From: Promethearchaeota archaeon
GTDB lineage: Archaea > Asgardarchaeota > Lokiarchaeia > Sigyniarchaeales > SOKP01
Direction: 5' to 3'
Assembly: GCA_013375475.1 (NCBI GenBank)
Contig: JABXKD010000085.1
Location: 1 to 11,724 of the forward strand
Length of the DNA stretch: 11,724 bases
The notes beneath the pieces are model-generated. The model worked only from the letters and a program-made list of their open reading frames with translations, was not told where the DNA came from and did no database searches. Every line of letters begins with the position of its first letter. The stretch's first letter is position 1. The translations under genes were made by a program, and so were the position numbers. Of the stretch, positions 1-11,724 are shown piece by piece.

Positions 1-3000
1 AGTTTTAGTTTGTTTTTCTTATATTGGTTTAGTCAAAATGTATTTCCTGATAATGTGGTGATAACGAATATCGTGTTTGTTGTTTTCGCTATATCTTTAT
101 TGGTACCTTTGATCTACCGATTAAGAATGTGGAAGATTATTACTATTCTATGGCTAATTTACACCGGCGTTAACATTACATTTCTCTTCGCTTTATTTTT
201 GGAAATCGGTTTACCCTTAGAGATTATTTTATCAATCAATATAATCATATTAGGTTTATTTTTTCTGATTTTATCATTTTTCCCCAATCTTAAAAACATT
301 AAAAATATAGTTCTCGTAGGATCTTATCTTACATCTCTAATTGGACTTTTCCTTACAATATTTTACATCATAAATGGAATAATCTTTAATATTTACATAT
401 CAATCAATTTAGCCTTTATAACAATTGCTTTAAGTTTATTTTCATCAAGACTACTTAAATTCAACAAGACTTTTTTTAATGTCTTAATCTCATCAATATT
501 GGTTGTAAATTTCTCGCTCTTTACTTACAATACGCTTGTTCTGATTCCGGATTTCGAATTTTTTTCAATATTTCTAGCAATTACGGTATTTGGAGGTTCT
601 CTTTTCATATTTAATAAATACAGAATGATTATTCCGATAAAAAAGATAATCCCCTTGACGATTTTATCGCTTGGTGTGTCTTTAACATTATCTTTACTAA
701 CATATGTGTTCCTCCCTGGCTTTATTTATTTAACAATTGCCGTTTTTATCTTAGTAAATTCAATTTTTCTTAGATCGGTACTCTATGAATACCGTTCTAT
801 TTTGTGGTATGCCTTTCCAATTCCATTAATCTTAATATTTTTGCAATTTATGGTATTAATTGATTTATTTCAATCTCCTTTTATTATATCTTTATTATCT
901 CTGCTATTTTATACTGCTTTATTTCAAATTCCTTGCATGGTGTACAGGAAAAATGTTAAGAAACAAGAAGATCTTAAAGATTTTGGTTTACTTAAAGTTG
1001 AATCAATTCTCTCATTGTTTTTACATTTTGAAATAGGATTATTGAGTTTTAGTTTAATCAGTGAAAATTTGGATATTAGTTTCTTTGAAACAGCTTTACT
1101 CTCTGCAATAATCTTCTTCGTCTCAACTTTATTCGAAATCCATATTATTAAGAAAGTTAACGAAAAAATAATATATTCCTTTAATATTATTGCCTACATC
1201 TTTATTTCCATTGGTTTATTCATATTTTTAAACCAATTTATCGCGATAGATGTATCTATATTCGTCTTAAATCTAGTAATACTTTTAACATTACAATTCT
1301 ATACGCTTTATGCGTTATGCCATTACATTGGAAAACTAACTCAATACGAGGAAAGTGTAATAAAGAAAGTTAGAAAACAGATACAAAATATTTTACTAAA
1401 TTCAATTTTCGTAATAGTTAGTTTGTACATTTCATTATTATTGAGCAATTTACTAATCGCATATAATCCATCATTAACGGGATATCCATCATTAAGTTTC
1501 TCTGGAATGATATTTTCTCTATTGATGTTTATCCTTAACGGATTAGTGAATCGCACAATAGAAATTAAAATCAAAAATATTATTTTATTAGGCGCTTATA
1601 TTTTCTTTCAATTCTTTTTTGCCGCCTTTTGGATAGCTTTTTTCACAATATTTGATCTTTTTGATGTATTTAGAATTCTCTTAATTATAATATCTGAAAC
1701 AATCTTTACCTCCTTTACGATATACATATCAGGAAAAGTAACTAAAAGCGAGAAATGGAAGGAAACCATAAAGAAAATATATTCGTTTATTATATTTTGC
1801 ATTTATCTAGAAACCTCATTCTTGTTTTTAGGATTATTTCAATTATTCCTAGGCTTCTATGAAAGCTTACTGTTTTCACAGATCATATTATTCTTGATAA
1901 GTATAATAGAAATTTATGCTATTAAGCGTCTTAAGGAAGGATCTATGGAAATAGTACACACAATAAGTTTCGTAAATATCTCCTGGATTCTTTTTATCAT
2001 TTTATATAGCATGTTTAGTTATTCTACGCTCTTTTTAGTTTTAATAGTGTTTTTAATGATTTTATTGCAATTTTACACGAATTATTCATATTTTGATATT
2101 AGGCGAAAGTTCAATCCAGAAAAATTGAATGTATTCTTAAAATGGAAGGATTTTAGAAAAAATATATTAGGATGGGGTGTTTACATACTTCTTTTGGGGA
2201 GTATTTTTAACTTATTCGCAATTTTAGGCTTTGAATTTTATTTAATTATCTTAATTATAAGCCTGACCACACATTTACTAGCTCTATTTGATAAATATAT
2301 GTTAAAGTTTTTAGGAAACGCATCGAATTTCTTTATAAGCTTTTCTTGGATCATATTGATTGGCTTTTCAATTTTATTCTATCTTGAATGGATTTCTATA
2401 TCCTTTATCCAGATAATACCGATAATTATTTTTATCTTAATAATTCAATTCGCCTACCTATTTAGATTATTGAAGGATTGGGAGTTTATCAAAAAAAACC
2501 AATCAAAAATTAACATTTCTCTTGTGAAGCTGGTTTATCTTAACTTAATCACTTGGCCTTTATATTATATTAGCTCTGATTTGTTTATTTCACTGAATTT
2601 AGTTCTTTTTTCGTTTATAGTTTTGCTGGTGTTAACATTCCTGGACGATTACGTTAAAACAATAACAGAAAAGAATAGGAAATATCTAAAGGTCACGAGT
2701 TTCGCCATTACTGAAGTTTTGTTATCCTCTGATATATTTTTGGCTTTAGAATTATTTGTAAATCCTAATATAATTCTTAACATTAGCATTGCTTTATGCT
2801 TCTTTATGATTGTAAATTTAGGGTTATTTAAACCTTTTAAACGCAAGAAAATAAGTTCTTTCCTCTATACTTTAGCTTTGTTTTTGTTGTTAAGTATAAT
2901 TACATTTAATATGTCATTATCGGGCTGGAGTTTCTCATTGATTTTTGTAGGAATTTTGCTATACCTATTTGTTTTTATGCTGGAAGAATTGAAAGCCTTT

Positions 3001-3564
3001 TTCAACAATATCGTAGATAATTTAAGATTAATGTTTATAAAGTTGAAGAACTTCCTTCTAAGAGGATATTATAAGCTCGTTAATTTCTTAAAAAATAACA
3101 TTAGGTTTATAATGTATATTCTTTGTGTGTTCGCGGGTATAATTGTGGGAATAACTTTTTCTGAAATTGGTTTATGGCCATTGCTAAGATGGGATCATGC
3201 AACCTTATTAGCCCCGGCAACTTCTGGAATTTTAATTTCTTTAATCCCACCTAAGAAAACCGACGACCTAGATATAGTTTTTAGGAAACGGATGCAACGA
3301 TTTATAACTCTTTGGGTTAGTTTTACAGCTTTTGTGTTTGTACTAATACTACCATATATTACATCATTTCTTTTCGGTTTGATTCTGATTCTTTCATCTG
3401 TAATTATATTAGGAGCAATATTGGCTATTTATATATACAGAATTGAAAAAAAACAGAAGATTTCAATCAAGTGGAGGTTTTACACAACAATAGTTTTAAT
3501 AACCCTAACGATTACTTGGGCTCTGTTATTAGTTGTTTTTTACCTTACTGAAGTTGCAGTATAA
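1..3564 (+). CDS. Giant polytopic membrane protein of unknown function, 5'-truncated by the window edge, with internal ~260-aa repeats
   Basis: The frame is open from base 1 (AGT TTT AGT TTG...), so the TTG at 10 is probably not the true start. More than 1180 aa of ~20-aa hydrophobic stretches separated by Lys-rich loops (roughly 30 TM segments by eye). Stop TAA at 3562-3564. No catalytic or transporter motif recognised. Confidence 0.85.
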   Translation, partial: SFSLFFLYWFSQNVFPDNVVITNIVFVVFAISLLVPLIYRLRMWKIITILWLIYTGVNITFLFALFLEIGLPLEIILSINIIILGLFFLILSFFPNLKNIKNIVLVGSYLTSLIGLFLTIFYIINGIIFNIYISINLAFITIALSLFSSRLLKFNKTFFNVLISSILVVNFSLFTYNTLVLIPDFEFFSIFLAITVFGGSLFIFNKYRMIIPIKKIIPLTILSLGVSLTLSLLTYVFLPGFIYLTIAVFILVNSIFLRSVLYEYRSILWYAFPIPLILIFLQFMVLIDLFQSPFIISLLSLLFYTALFQIPCMVYRKNVKKQEDLKDFGLLKVESILSLFLHFEIGLLSFSLISENLDISFFETALLSAIIFFVSTLFEIHIIKKVNEKIIYSFNIIAYIFISIGLFIFLNQFIAIDVSIFVLNLVILLTLQFYTLYALCHYIGKLTQYEESVIKKVRKQIQNILLNSIFVIVSLYISLLLSNLLIAYNPSLTGYPSLSFSGMIFSLLMFILNGLVNRTIEIKIKNIILLGAYIFFQFFFAAFWIAFFTIFDLFDVFRILLIIISETIFTSFTIYISGKVTKSEKWKETIKKIYSFIIFCIYLETSFLFLGLFQLFLGFYESLLFSQIILFLISIIEIYAIKRLKEGSMEIVHTISFVNISWILFIILYSMFSYSTLFLVLIVFLMILLQFYTNYSYFDIRRKFNPEKLNVFLKWKDFRKNILGWGVYILLLGSIFNLFAILGFEFYLIILIISLTTHLLALFDKYMLKFLGNASNFFISFSWIILIGFSILFYLEWISISFIQIIPIIIFILIIQFAYLFRLLKDWEFIKKNQSKINISLVKLVYLNLITWPLYYISSDLFISLNLVLFSFIVLLVLTFLDDYVKTITEKNRKYLKVTSFAITEVLLSSDIFLALELFVNPNIILNISIALCFFMIVNLGLFKPFKRKKISSFLYTLALFLLLSIITFNMSLSGWSFSLIFVGILLYLFVFMLEELKAFFNNIVDNLRLMFIKLKNFLLRGYYKLVNFLKNNIRFIMYILCVFAGIIVGITFSEIGLWPLLRWDHATLLAPATSGILISLIPPKKTDDLDIVFRKRMQRFITLWVSFTAFVFVLILPYITSFLFGLILILSSVIILGAILAIYIYRIEKKQKISIKWRFYTTIVLITLTITWALLLVVFYLTEVAV

Positions 3565-3965: not shown

Positions 3966-4928
3966 TTATTTGATACTTTCGATCGAAATTTTAGGATTGG
4001 TTAGGTTTATACCTATCTCCCTGAGTTCATTAATGATTTTATCGACAATTTGTTTTGCTTCAGAATTTCTCTTCAAACCACTTATCATCATTTTACCCTT
4101 AGAAAATAAAATGATTGTAGCGCTTGGGTTCTGGTTTTTAATAATCAACCCGGGAAATTTCTCTGGATTAAACTCAGCATTTTCGATTTTTTGAGCGATT
4201 TGACTCAGGTCTAACTTTTTTTCAATCTCCAATGACACGGTTATTTCATGCTTCGAAATTCTTTGATGTAACACTATCTCTATTTTTTTATAGAATTCTT
4301 TTAAATTACCTTTCAAATCTTCATAAAATCTTCTAACATCTGCTTGTTCTTCTTCAGAAAATGAATCTAAATCATTTATGTATAAAGCTTTGAAATTATC
4401 TTGAGTAGCACTTAATTGCGATTCAAAATCAGTACAGAGAGAGTGAATTATTTCTTCAATCGCTTGATTAATTTTCCGATCTAAACTTACACTGATCATT
4501 AACATTTCTTTATTTCCACGAGCCCAATCCGAGTGGAGTTCAAAATAATAATTTGCGGAAGATATAATACTGGATTGATTGATGAAAAATCTTTCTTTAG
4601 AAGCTTGAATCATTATTTCAGCGATACTTTCTTTTTCTAAATTATTCAGAACATTCTCTGGAAATGAATAGAATACATGAGGACCACTTCTTCTTTTAAA
4701 GAAGGTCAATGTAACAGTAGTTTTTGTAGCGAGTTTCGCTTCAGGGATTAAAATAAGAGTATAAGAAACATCAGGATCAAGGAGTTCATCATCAATATAC
4801 GCTTTACTTATAGGAAATTTAGCCCCATTCTTATGTACCCTTAACATTTGACGCCTTAGGCTTATGCCCCCAAATTTATGTGAATCTACGATCATTTTTT
4901 TTCTATCTTTTTCATTCATGATTTCCAT
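3966..4928 (-). CDS. Three-domain fusion: AbrB/MazE-like N-terminus + longin/uDENN-like domain + one TATA-binding-protein (TBP) repeat
   Basis: aa ~224-320 match one archaeal TBP repeat (LDLSQIA...AEFNPEKFPGLIIK..NPSATIILFSKGKMMISG.K). aa ~70-220 show the uDENN/longin pattern TFF...GP...YSFP plus YYFELHSDWARGNKEMLMISV. aa ~20-63 resemble a swapped hairpin (GAKFPISKAYID..LL.P...YTLILIP). RBS-like GAGGT lies 8 nt before the ATG. Confidence 0.85.
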   Translation of the reverse strand: MEIMNEKDRKKMIVDSHKFGGISLRRQMLRVHKNGAKFPISKAYIDDELLDPDVSYTLILIPEAKLATKTTVTLTFFKRRSGPHVFYSFPENVLNNLEKESIAEIMIQASKERFFINQSSIISSANYYFELHSDWARGNKEMLMISVSLDRKINQAIEEIIHSLCTDFESQLSATQDNFKALYINDLDSFSEEEQADVRRFYEDLKGNLKEFYKKIEIVLHQRISKHEITVSLEIEKKLDLSQIAQKIENAEFNPEKFPGLIIKNQNPSATIILFSKGKMMISGLKRNSEAKQIVDKIINELREIGINLTNPKISIESIK

Positions 4929-8784: not shown

Positions 8785-8814
8785 TGTATTATTTTCTGGC
8801 AGTTTATAATTTTT

Positions 8815-9666
8815 TTATGGTTTTACAATATCATCTACATTTGTTCTGTTCTCCGAGTAGAATAGAATCAGTATAATCCCTACTATCGCAATTAGAACCA
8901 TCAAGATGAAGATACCCTGAAATGTGTTCACAGCAAGAAATAATGAGCTCTCATTTACGGTTACATGAAGTAAAGCAGTGAGAAGGATGCTTTGTGTCTT
9001 ACTATAAAGCCAAGTGACTAAAAAAGTGAAGATAACAACCCTAATAGTGTATATTAAAAATACTAGCAAATCTATAGAACCCTCTTCAATTAGAAACATC
9101 GGAATATGCCATAAAGCATGGGGTAAGCCAATAATAAAACTCATTTTAATTGGGCTTTGCGTCTTCTGTAGATGATGCTGAGCAAATCCTCGCCACCCTA
9201 TCTCTTCTTCATAATTACCTAGTAAGAGTCTAACCAAAAAATGGAAAATGAAACCTAAAAGTCCATATACTACTATTGTATTTGGAAACGATTCCCCTAG
9301 CATGAGCTCAATACTTAGTGGAATCATAAAGATCGCTATTGGCATGAGGAGAGCAAACACATAATAGATGGGGTTAACTCTCCATCTGAAGATTCGGTTA
9401 ACTAATTCTCGGAGTTCACTTTTTCCATACAACATTAATGTGAGAATGATAGCAGCAATCCCTGGTCCGCACGCTCCAATTTTTGCTAAGATTTCCAAGA
9501 TAATAAGAAGCGTTGCTGGTGCCAACTCAGGTAATGCTCTATAAGGTTCAAATACCATAAATACTGTGAGCCAGCATGTCCAAGTTATAACAAATGTTAA
9601 GAAAAAATACGCTAAAACAGGATGTTTATGTACGAAAGATTTCATAGGGGATTTTACCAAATCCAA
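8815..9666 (-). CDS. CPBP-family (Abi / type II CAAX) intramembrane glutamic endopeptidase
   Basis: EEEIGWRG (EExxxR), HALWH and LLHVTVN (HxxxN) motifs with multiple TM helices. Start is TTG 9666 or ATG 9645. Confidence 0.92.
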   Translation of the reverse strand: MDLVKSPMKSFVHKHPVLAYFFLTFVITWTCWLTVFMVFEPYRALPELAPATLLIILEILAKIGACGPGIAAIILTLMLYGKSELRELVNRIFRWRVNPIYYVFALLMPIAIFMIPLSIELMLGESFPNTIVVYGLLGFIFHFLVRLLLGNYEEEIGWRGFAQHHLQKTQSPIKMSFIIGLPHALWHIPMFLIEEGSIDLLVFLIYTIRVVIFTFLVTWLYSKTQSILLTALLHVTVNESSLFLAVNTFQGIFILMVLIAIVGIILILFYSENRTNVDDIVKP

Positions 9667-9712
9667 TTTTCTTTTTAATTTTAGTTTTTAATTCTAACAT
9701 TAATTAATCTAA

Positions 9713-9720
9713 TATTTAAA
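9713..9720 (-). promoter_or_regulatory. TATA box for the CPBP gene
   Basis: TTTAAATA on the minus strand ~47 nt upstream of TTG 9666. Confidence 0.45.
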
Positions 9721-9804
9721 ATTAATTTGGACCGTTTTTTACCAGATATTCAAATTAGGATTTATTCAAGTTACCTATATAGAAGAATTCTAATGAAACG
9801 GTAT

Positions 9805-9817
9805 TGAAGAAAAAAGG
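9805..9817 (-). terminator. Candidate U-tract terminator / 3' end of the structured RNA
   Basis: Minus strand CCTTTTTTCTTCA, the first long pyrimidine/T-tract after the structured region. Confidence 0.35.
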
Positions 9818-9895
9818 TTCAAGAAGTTGCAATGAGTTTCTGATGGGTTTTTGCGTAGTATTGTAGCAATGTAATTTAAGATTGTTCAACAAGTT

Positions 9896-10011
9896 CGAAA
9901 ACCCGTCGTCCAATCCGTATCCGAAGATACATCAGGCTCCAGAGAAGCTTGATTTACCAATTTCATTACCGTTAGGTAGTTCAATTGGTAGCATTACATT
10001 GATTGCGATAC
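9896..10011 (-). repeat. Degenerate ~115-nt direct repeat, copy B (3' copy in the RNA)
   Basis: Shares the blocks CGAAAACC, CCAA, TATCCGAAGATA, ACCAATTT, TACC..AGGTA.TTCAA and CATT.CATTGA....ATAC, in the same order, with 10396-10513 (offset ~500 nt). Confidence 0.75.
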
Positions 10012-10395
10012 CTTTTCCTATGACCACACTATCATTCACGACCCGATGGAATAAGCAATTAAATCCCCGAAAGAATTTGTTGCGAGATATTGCCATTCCT
10101 TACGAGGTAAGGAAAGTCCCCATTCAATGCATTCAAACAATTGGTTGTGAAACCTCCTGTCAGAATCACTCCGGAGATTTAGTCGAAATTGCTAGCATAG
10201 CTCGACTTACCGAAATAGCATACCCGTTAGGATAACATTCGGTAGCATCTCATGAGGTTGCTATATCTTTTCCGATGATCATGTATTCAAGCATGATTTG
10301 AGAAAATACAAATATGCCCGAAGGCTCATTGCTAGTATTTCATTCTATATTTTCATATAAAATGTCTCAATGACCAACTCTTTTTAGCATTAATC

Positions 10396-10513
10396 CGAAA
10401 ACCAATGAACCAAACTTATATCCGAAGATATAATCTTTCCGATAAGGAAAGAAAGTTTAACCAATTTTTCATACCAGAGGTATTCAAATTGATCATTCCA
10501 TTGAGGTAAATAC
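10396..10513 (-). repeat. Degenerate ~115-nt direct repeat, copy A (5' copy in the RNA)
   Basis: Colinear with 9896-10011. Exact 12-mer TATCCGAAGATA at 10419-10430 and 9918-9929. Indels between the copies are not multiples of three. Confidence 0.75.
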
Positions 10514-10568
10514 TACTTCTCGATATTCACACCGCGAGGTATGAACAATATATATTTTGAACGGATCA

Positions 10569-10576
10569 TATTTAAA
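10569..10576 (-). promoter_or_regulatory. Putative TATA box for the candidate ncRNA
   Basis: TTTAAATA on the minus strand ending 21 nt before the first hairpin (10547). It is identical to the TATA octamers in front of three genes in this window. The upstream sequence is not a canonical BRE. Confidence 0.5.
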
Positions 10577-10648
10577 TGGGACTATTAAGGGATTACTAAA
10601 AAATTTTGTCGCTAGGATTCGGTTAAAATTTTTTTAAGTCGGATTCAT

Positions 10649-11724
10649 CTATTCGATATAGCACGATAAATCCTTTTGTTCAGATTTCCTCATAATATTC
10701 GATTTTATCAGTTCCTCAAGTTCGGGAAACTCGAAAGGAAAAATGTTTTCAAAGGCTCTTTTAAGTAATTCGACATATTTCTTTCTGTCGTACTGATGCT
10801 TTTTCTCGTCGTAAAGATCTGAGAGAATAACCTTATTCTCAGGAAATTCCGGGTTAGCATCTGCATTGAGTATAATATATCGTACATTTTTGCCAGGGGT
10901 TACCACTACCCCCGATCTCTCCAATTGTTTTGCCGCAACAGCTTGATAGGAGTTTACTTTATATTGAGATGGTTTCCTGGAAACTCTTTGGCGAATTGTA
11001 AGTTCTTCTCGCGAAATTTTTCCTGTCTCTATTTTGTCAATGTAATTGTAGAGTGTTTTCTTCGCTTTTGGCATTCTTCTCATAAATTCTTTGGTGGTAG
11101 TTGCTCCTTGAAAAACATCTATAAACGCATATTGTGCGACTTTAACAATTTTTGGTGCATCTCTACGGCGAACTTCAATTCCTCGGACTTTTACTTCTCC
11201 GTCGCTCTTAATACCCCAGTAATGACTTAACGCAGGAATATCGGATTCCGCTTTCGAAGGGAGAAAACAAATAACATTATAACGCCCGTCCCAACTCATA
11301 GGAATACCCACGCTTTCGGTTATTTCAGCAGCTATTTCTCTTGTTACTTCTTCAAACTCTTCGGGAGTCCGGTTTTCAGTGTCTTTCAGCCAAATCGAAT
11401 CTACAATTCCATGAATAATTTTGCAGCCGCGTTCTTCAGCAATCTCAGCAGAGCGCATTAAAAATTCCCTAGCAAAAGCACAAACGGTTTGATGCGCTTC
11501 AATCTTCCCAAAACGGGCGTTTTTGAAACCTAAATAGCCAAAACTCACTACAAGCACCCATTTGAGAGCGATATCCACAAAGTTATAACGAACGCTTCCG
11601 GTTTTGCGGACATATTCTTTGTACTTCAGCCTCTTATTCAAAGGCAGACTTATTGATTTTGATATTATACCTTGCCTTTTTGTGCAGATGTGAAAGTCCA
11701 ATCCTGGAACTTTTATGCCAGTGC
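10649..11724 (-). CDS. polB2: Archaeal family B DNA polymerase, PolB2 (Dpo2-like) group; C-terminal part only, 5' end outside the window
   Basis: The frame stays open to the window edge (TGIKVPGLDFHIC...). Motif B ALKWVLVVSFGYLG, motif C HGIVDS (11396-11413; PolB2-type, versus canonical YGDTDS), thumb motif RGIEVRRRD, and C-terminal PIP box QKDLSCYI (10655-10678). Confidence 0.9.
   Translation of the reverse strand, partial: TGIKVPGLDFHICTKRQGIISKSISLPLNKRLKYKEYVRKTGSVRYNFVDIALKWVLVVSFGYLGFKNARFGKIEAHQTVCAFAREFLMRSAEIAEERGCKIIHGIVDSIWLKDTENRTPEEFEEVTREIAAEITESVGIPMSWDGRYNVICFLPSKAESDIPALSHYWGIKSDGEVKVRGIEVRRRDAPKIVKVAQYAFIDVFQGATTTKEFMRRMPKAKKTLYNYIDKIETGKISREELTIRQRVSRKPSQYKVNSYQAVAAKQLERSGVVVTPGKNVRYIILNADANPEFPENKVILSDLYDEKKHQYDRKKYVELLKRAFENIFPFEFPELEELIKSNIMRKSEQKDLSCYIE

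Follow-up and report, generated by a model that had tools for sequence, protein, structure and literature searches.

Several large, ornate noncoding RNAs (ncRNAs) of bacteria, namely GOLLD, ROOL, and OLE, are reported to form homo-oligomers (PMC12286853). According to the published accounts, they share with the raiA motif RNA (PMC12968392), and with the RNA analyzed here, the features of being large, branched, abundant, and encoded by stand-alone genes. The present RNA measures 250–720 nt and, as reported for ornate orphan RNAs, was found through its structure and its excess of G+C in an AT-rich genome. Unlike GOLLD, ROOL, OLE, and raiA, however, it is archaeal, has no match in Rfam 15, combines a fixed trunk with a swapped or multiplied head, and is patchily distributed (57 of 135 genomes of its taxonomic family); and whereas oligomers have been reported for the first three, it is known from its sequence, its predicted fold, and assembled contigs. 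Duplicated RNA domains are also found in tandem riboswitch aptamers, such as those of glycine riboswitches, in which, likewise, two or more homologous ligand-type folds are kept by covariation within one transcript. Unlike tandem riboswitches, the RNA analyzed here has neither the position of a 5′ leader nor an expression platform: the gene stands alone, with a terminator of its own, and the modules are nested in a trunk hairpin instead of lying side by side before an ORF. From archaea, stable circular RNAs have been reported in a circRNA-seq survey (PMC3326292), as have Rnl-dependent circular C/D box sRNAs (PMC9014305) and circular omega RNAs (PMC12558985). In the literature that we searched, we found neither a description of the present RNA nor any large, intricately folded RNA of unknown function described from archaea.

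Here, we analyzed a stretch of 11,724 nt from a Lokiarchaeal genome (hereafter the window), in which the original prediction had placed a structured RNA module present in two diverged copies, A and B. The RNA is built of a fixed trunk with interchangeable, sometimes multiplied heads and, as a structural and genetic statement, we are fairly confident that A and B are paralogous heads within a single structured ncRNA, which is highly expressed from a stand-alone gene on the minus strand.

Repeated head modules and trunk architecture

The RNA gene is a single locus of the 3.9-Mb genome. It covers ∼712 nt of the minus strand, from about 10524 to 9813, in a gap of 980 nt between two minus-strand genes, that is, a family-B DNA polymerase (polB-like) gene upstream (10649–11722, and on to about position 13025 of the contig) and a gene for an Rce1-like membrane protease downstream (8815–9666). 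The host genome is archaeal and AT-rich: G+C content is 25–30% across much of the window and reaches up to about 40% in the gap, and the window has a TBP-domain gene, the closest relatives of which carry the source names Lokiarchaeota or Promethearchaeota. The TBP-domain protein (3966–4928, minus strand) is 320 aa long, with one TBP repeat at residues 228–304 and a long N-terminal part that has no Pfam match; its homologs, of about 317–320 aa and about 220 aa, are common across Loki-type metagenomes. At the far side of the window (1–3564, plus strand) lies an open frame of at least 1187 aa, whose start is cut by the window edge and which has no Pfam match at E 0.001.

To compare the copies, we used R1, a covariance model made from copy A only at 12 relative loci, the alignment of which has four hairpins and 28 consensus pairs, 10 of them with compensatory change. 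With filters off, R1 recovers copy A at 113–140 bits in 12 of 12 sources searched (127.5 bits in the window, at 10388–10514 on the minus strand). It also recovers copy B, at 9888–10012 on the same strand, with 58.8 bits (E 5e-9 in the window and 1.7e-6 in the whole genome), and does so in all six three-unit relatives (36.9–63.2 bits), while an nhmmer profile of A alone reaches B with an E of 1.1e-10 in the whole genome. Direct comparison by blastn yields only a 12-nt identity and 52 nt at 73% (pairwise E 0.06). In the model alignment, A and B are identical at 65 of 121 aligned bases (54%), and 25 of the 28 model pairs form in both copies: 16 are the same, three have changed on one side, and six have changed on both sides and still pair, the last three being unpaired in one copy. 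The structural match also appears in a control independent of the model, in which the separate minimum free energy (MFE) folds of A and B, aligned by sequence only with MAFFT, share 12 pairs, when 200 dinucleotide shuffles of B share 0.3 on average, 6 at most, and never 12; by MFE alone, B folds into four hairpins that follow one another as in A. Finally, in a 20-row alignment fitted to the model, which favors the score (seven A, six B, and six rows of a third copy, M, described below, plus one spurious plus-strand fragment), 89.9% of the cells pair against 30–47% with slid partners, 18 of 28 pairs show two-side change, and none of 500 shuffles reaches the covariation score; this covariation evidence is drawn from few, closely related sequences. 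R1, the pair counts, and the shuffle control thus uphold the original prediction of a duplicated RNA module whose helices have been kept despite substitutions and non-triplet indels, and its structural alignment, once set against shuffled controls, stands well apart from them. Internal copies of this kind supply covariation evidence from one genome, which is useful where relatives are few.

At a finer scale, the three pairs of hairpins first described are all in the sequence, on the minus strand and where they had been placed, as is the motif UUGG-N6-GGUUUUCG that follows both copies (10413–10396 in A and 9913–9896 in B). The description of each copy as three consecutive hairpins was nevertheless incomplete, for each also has a fourth hairpin (H4) and closing stems of its own, and the limits initially drawn end inside the H4 loop (H4 at 10407–10388 in A and 9908–9887 in B). 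Head A comprises H1 (10493–10459), H2 (10452–10434), and H3 (10433–10416) in addition to H4, within a closing stem that pairs 10505–10498 with 10373–10366; it is accompanied by a hairpin H5 (10341–10364; alifold columns 173–182 with 187–196) that has no counterpart in module B. Head B comprises H1 (9990–9955), H2 (9953–9931), H3 (9930–9917), and H4, within an outer stem (10012–10008 with 9861–9857) and a closing stem (10001–9993 with 9875–9867). A head is a multi-helix junction with four hairpins, two of which, H3 and H4, bear UUCG loops, and short stems of similar sequence close this junction in every copy.

Where two copies had been proposed, the comparisons of sequence and predicted fold indicate that the RNA probably has three. 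The additional one, M, is a diverged and remodeled copy at 10139–10267 on the minus strand (about 10300–10016 for the whole domain with its outer stems), which R1 finds at the equivalent place in every three-unit relative; it scores 22.9 bits in the window (E 0.0065) and 12.7–27.2 bits in five relatives (E from 0.0034 to 0.99 across genomes). M is the weakest of the three, with a remodeled H2 and weak H3 and H4, and it is tied to the family through B: blastn aligns B and M over 84 nt at 72.6% identity, and their MFE folds share 10 pairs, a number reached by two of 200 shuffles. A and M share no MFE pair, so that M has no direct support through A.

In the alifold consensus of seven long forms, which has 234 pairs (28 with compensatory change), the heads are placed on a trunk. 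All elements of this consensus lie on the minus strand. The ends of the RNA are joined by the 9-bp helix P1 (10523–10515 with 9827–9819; alifold columns 8–16 with 742–750), P2 (10514–10509 with 10339–10334) carries head A, and the trunk hairpin P3 (10332–10325 with 9836–9829; alifold columns 205–212 with 733–740) has, in this lineage, a loop that holds a domain with module M and then module B, after which the 3′ strands of P3 and P1 follow each other at 9819–9836. Since B and M sit inside this one expanded trunk hairpin, the suggestion that copies near the 5′ and 3′ ends make up a symmetric design had to be given up.

The transcript and its ends

The assignment to the minus strand rests on the UUCG loops, the many consensus G·U pairs of the seven long forms, which are workable on that strand only, an upstream TATA-like box, and a downstream run of six T. 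Folding agrees with it: over 9813–10524, MFE is −213.9 kcal/mol (z −6.05) for the minus strand and −170.3 kcal/mol (z −4.40) for the plus strand, a difference of 43.6 kcal/mol, and over 9860–10580 the minus strand reaches −213.8 kcal/mol (z −8.3).

Upstream of the RNA, a conserved promoter element (10569–10590, minus strand) includes the TATA-like box TTTAAATA at 10576–10569, which is invariant in an alignment of 29 sequences, the upstream part of the element being mostly near-invariant. Between this promoter and the polB-like stop codon, two CGAC(N)AAAA-type direct boxes about 30 nt apart were recognized by eye (10642–10631 and 10612–10604, minus strand); again by eye, relatives from both genera have boxes of this type in the equivalent position, and these could be the binding sites of a regulator. 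The 22-nt promoter pattern occurs a single time in the genome, and the notion of a promoter motif shared by stable RNAs was discarded on that account. Across the genus, 12 new matches to the pattern were found, of which four are family members with another head and eight are unrelated. In four genomes (G028, G005, G016, and G026), another intergenic element lies behind the similar promoter pattern TTAATAG-N5-TTTAAATA; it is near-identical over about 150 nt in the four and unrelated to the RNA studied here.

Expression was assessed from assembled contigs, from which strand and true ends cannot be read. Parts of the window are contained in 20 public runs of seven studies, 14 of these runs being recorded as RNA. 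When the contigs of four metatranscriptomes from four studies are placed on 8800–11700, they cover about 9813–10523 only: contig depth is zero over 8800–9769 and 10546–11700, neither neighbor gene is covered in these four runs, and the summed depth over the RNA is very high in one run. Run X1 by itself contributes 1482 contigs, and the metatranscriptomes contain many strain variants. Uncovered flanks are no proof against transcription there, but they show that the RNA is discrete in the assembled material. Together with fold energy, this contig cover defines an abundant, mature form of about 712 nt (9813–10524, minus strand), the 3′ side of which coincides with the run of six T at 9810–9815 on the same strand, a likely terminator where contig cover ends at 9813. 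The CC before this T-run is kept in all family members seen.

The 5′ side is less straightforward. Immediately 5′ of the abundant RNA lies a conserved hairpin of the predicted fold (10525–10546, minus strand), which, by eye, shows G·U pairs and C–G to U–A exchanges between relatives, and among the 28 contig pieces listed from a total of 1594, not one reaches past 10522. Because the hairpin has such pairs and exchanges and yet lies beyond the listed contigs, it is probably a processed leader transcribed from the box at 10576–10569. Alternatively, it may be untranscribed promoter DNA, in which case transcription would start near 10524 from a second AT-rich box (10547–10558, minus strand), a possible alternative TATA box whose spacing would put the start near 10524–10526.

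Two observations concern the joining of the ends. In run X2, two contigs carry sequencing adapter directly at 9819 and at 10523, which are both ends of helix P1. In run X1, the first 17 trunk bases from 10524 directly follow the 3′ end at 9813 in one contig (179 nt, depth about 5458), an arrangement that hints at a circular or permuted RNA, this being a single contig in one of the four runs and possibly a library artifact. Like the reported circular RNAs of archaea, the RNA has its ends paired in a helix. By contrast, no canonical bulge–helix–bulge motif was seen at its ends by inspection, although the leader (10533–10526) could pair with the trailer (about 9806–9798), itself not conserved among relatives. 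As to enzymes, the host genome encodes RtcB; a Pab1020-type RNA ligase was considered for the circularization and dropped, as none was found in this genome.

Family forms and the possible role of the extra heads

The family was delimited with R2, a sequence-only model of the promoter, the leader, and the 5′ trunk derived from 29 sequences. R2 finds the RNA in 57 of the 135 genomes of the taxonomic family and not in the other 78; by genus, it is present in 20 of 42 genomes in g1 (this genome included), 36 of 54 in g28, one of six in g21, and none of 33 in ten other genera. The window is the top R2 match at 81.3 bits, which holds by construction given that it is one of the 29 training sequences. 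In the window and in relatives, the two trunk strands pair with each other, and CC and the T-run come after the 3′ one. The head model R1 has a narrower reach, with matches in only 21 of the 135 genomes, in two genera, and none in 19 genomes of three other families of the order. Lengths, taken from the end pattern with few loci falling outside it, cluster at about 246–250 nt (one head of the type described here), 327–358 nt (another head type), 642 nt (expanded), and 712–717 nt (three heads). The trunk with a different head type was read in G029, G019, G017, and G018, and three-head forms were seen only in the genome of the window (G000), G014 (two loci), G002, G024, G012, G023, and at one locus of G106. 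In G127 (C76:5140–5885), two complete one-head RNA genes, both equipped with a promoter and a terminator, form a tandem at a spacing of about 512 nt, which represents a gene duplication, unlike the internal module duplication of the window. A search for further three-head relatives in metagenome contigs through an exact 14-mer of module M returned at least 120 stretches, and since none of the 80 examined matches R1, these are chance matches; a narrow test of viral carriage through a trunk 15-mer returned 26 viral contigs, none of which matches R1.

The relatives also indicate which parts can be spared. The first 267 nt of the one-head RNA of G005 are 88% identical to the window RNA; its P3 is capped by a short loop, M and B being gone through a clean deletion between the P3 strands. 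The diverged three-unit relative G023 has a module B without H1. Within the RNA, conservation is lowest in B: across the six close forms its mean identity is 0.81 (A, 0.88; M, 0.89), and against G023 it falls to 0.36. From these observations, the extra heads look dispensable; more precisely, M and B are not indispensable, because one-module relatives exist and one of them has cleanly lost both. The three-unit form has nonetheless persisted, given that it is present in the diverged G023 as well.

How, then, might such an RNA work? We infer that one head on its trunk would be the working unit, that the conserved joining strands and hairpins of the head would offer a binding surface to a protein or to another RNA partner, and that three heads would make this scaffold multivalent, while the paired ends, and possibly circularization, would keep the RNA stable and abundant. 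We regard the binding surface and the multivalent scaffold as a tenable role, if somewhat short of a probable one.

A first competing explanation is that the extra copies are evolutionary baggage, i.e., that a tandem or nested duplication of the head, arisen in one lineage, has been tolerated, adds nothing, and leaves M and B to decay. The clean loss of M and B in G005, the loss of H1 from B in G023, the fast evolution of B, which changes faster than any other segment, and the remodeled H2 and weak H3 and H4 of M would all be expected under this explanation. Eight pairs of module B, on the other hand, show two-side change between genomes, so that its helices have been kept by compensation, and six of six close three-unit forms keep B above 36 bits; we consider baggage unlikely, without being far-fetched.

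According to a second explanation, extra copies would serve an RNA-only assembly: the head would self-associate, so that one-head RNAs would oligomerize, an arrangement that the three-head RNA would reproduce, with pseudo-symmetry, in one chain. The natural variation between one and three heads on the same trunk and the very high metatranscriptome abundance are in line with this possibility, as are the homo-oligomers reported for GOLLD, ROOL, and OLE (PMC12286853). Against it, no complementary loop pairs were identified between heads, and B decays faster than A, a poor fit to a symmetric assembly. UUCG loops, moreover, are usually structural caps, and it is these that H3 and H4 carry. By our assessment, such an assembly is quite unlikely.

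Gene neighborhood, excluded identities, and significance

In 23 of the 26 loci tested, the RNA immediately follows the polB-like gene and shares its strand. This position, and the fact that tandem aptamers are a known design, would fit a cis-acting leader or a tandem riboswitch-like sensor for the downstream Rce1-like gene or the upstream polB-like gene. A cis-regulatory role is however largely refuted, and we deem it very improbable: the RNA has its own conserved promoter and T-run terminator, contig cover stops at both of its ends (at 9813 on the 3′ side), the downstream gene varies between genomes and is often convergent, many g28 genomes have the RNA gene and the polB-like gene on separate contigs, and in G105, a genome in one contig, the two are about 515 kb apart. 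We likewise rejected a functional link between the RNA and the polB-like gene, in view of the RNA being elsewhere in many g28 genomes and, in 38 of 40 further ones, missing from its usual site after that gene. Within g28, the polB-like stop codon is followed by one and the same convergent gene (about 189 aa), from which it is separated by about 22–25 nt where the RNA is absent; where the RNA occurs at this site, a cassette of roughly 560 nt has been inserted between the two. On the gene orders compared, we read the adjacency to polB as lineage synteny of a presence/absence cassette and not as a functional pair. Because the RNA gene is absent from 78 of 135 genomes by R2 and from the usual polB site in 38 of 40, it is accessory and not housekeeping.

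As for the polB-like gene itself, it is a single-copy ortholog in 112 of the 135 family genomes, and the best NCBIfam match of its protein, NF004416, stays below cut-off (326 of 516 bits). Its frame is broken in this genome at a short N run, at the window's edge. Its motif C reads IVD where the Pfu polymerase has DTD; inactivation of the polymerase was considered for this reason and is not claimed, the aspartate of motif A being retained.

The remaining reading, that of a dispersed DNA repeat (MITE/REP) or of a plus-strand protein-coding region, has next to no chance of being correct: a 117-aa ORF (9882–10235) is indeed open on the plus strand, but it has no Pfam match and is broken by stops or frameshifts in five of seven relatives, while R1 gives two matches in the whole genome, both at this locus, and the nhmmer profile of unit A and blastn searches with A, B, M, and the full RNA against the 288 contigs return this locus alone, so that the mobile-repeat outcome initially envisaged is set aside. 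By eye, neither target-site duplications nor terminal inverted repeats were seen at module borders or at cassette borders, the latter by comparison of g28 genomes with and without the RNA, a tentative observation in flanks as AT-rich as these.

Known RNA classes were searched in the same way. The models of Rfam 15 include GOLLD, ROOL, OLE, HEARO, raiA, RNase P, SRP, tmRNA, introns, and self-cleaving ribozymes. None of its 4227 models matches the window at gathering threshold, and permissive filters give, over 9600–10750, just three noise matches (E 0.37–4.3, with 13–18 bits against thresholds of 44–60). ARAGORN finds no tRNA or tmRNA gene in the window, following which we dropped a by-eye idea of a tRNA-like end, with an acceptor-like P1 followed by N-CC. 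The archaeal RNAs classically known to vary in size, those of RNase P and SRP, have in common with the present RNA a conserved core with lineage-specific expansions; unlike it, both are encoded elsewhere in the same genome (RNase P RNA on contig C22 at 137.5 bits, and an SRP-like match on C166 at 62.9 bits), and as the present RNA matches no model of either, both identities were rejected. The SRP-like match (G000:C166:40735–40970) is the only one of this genome, falls below the gathering score of 96.5, and spans model positions 67–307 only; the SRP RNA of this lineage seems to be divergent, or 5′-truncated relative to the model. Judged by these model comparisons, the RNA is a member of no catalogued RNA family.

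Orphan RNAs of such size and intricate folding are rare. The one analyzed here belongs to the archaeal lineage nearest to eukaryotes and is present as a discrete RNA in four metatranscriptome studies of sediments and estuaries. It also amounts to a natural experiment, in that one trunk is found with a single head, with another head type, or with three heads, and a near-identical relative lacks two of them, which makes the question of head binding and valency directly testable. Extending the proposed multivalent scaffold, one may picture a very abundant, possibly circular, modular RNA whose one or three heads would determine how multivalent an RNA-only or RNA–protein assembly is, a picture that we hold to be rather improbable as a whole. 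If it were true, internal triplication would do within one chain what homo-oligomerization does for the ornate RNAs of bacteria, and archaea would have, in this family, their first described class of large ornate RNAs.
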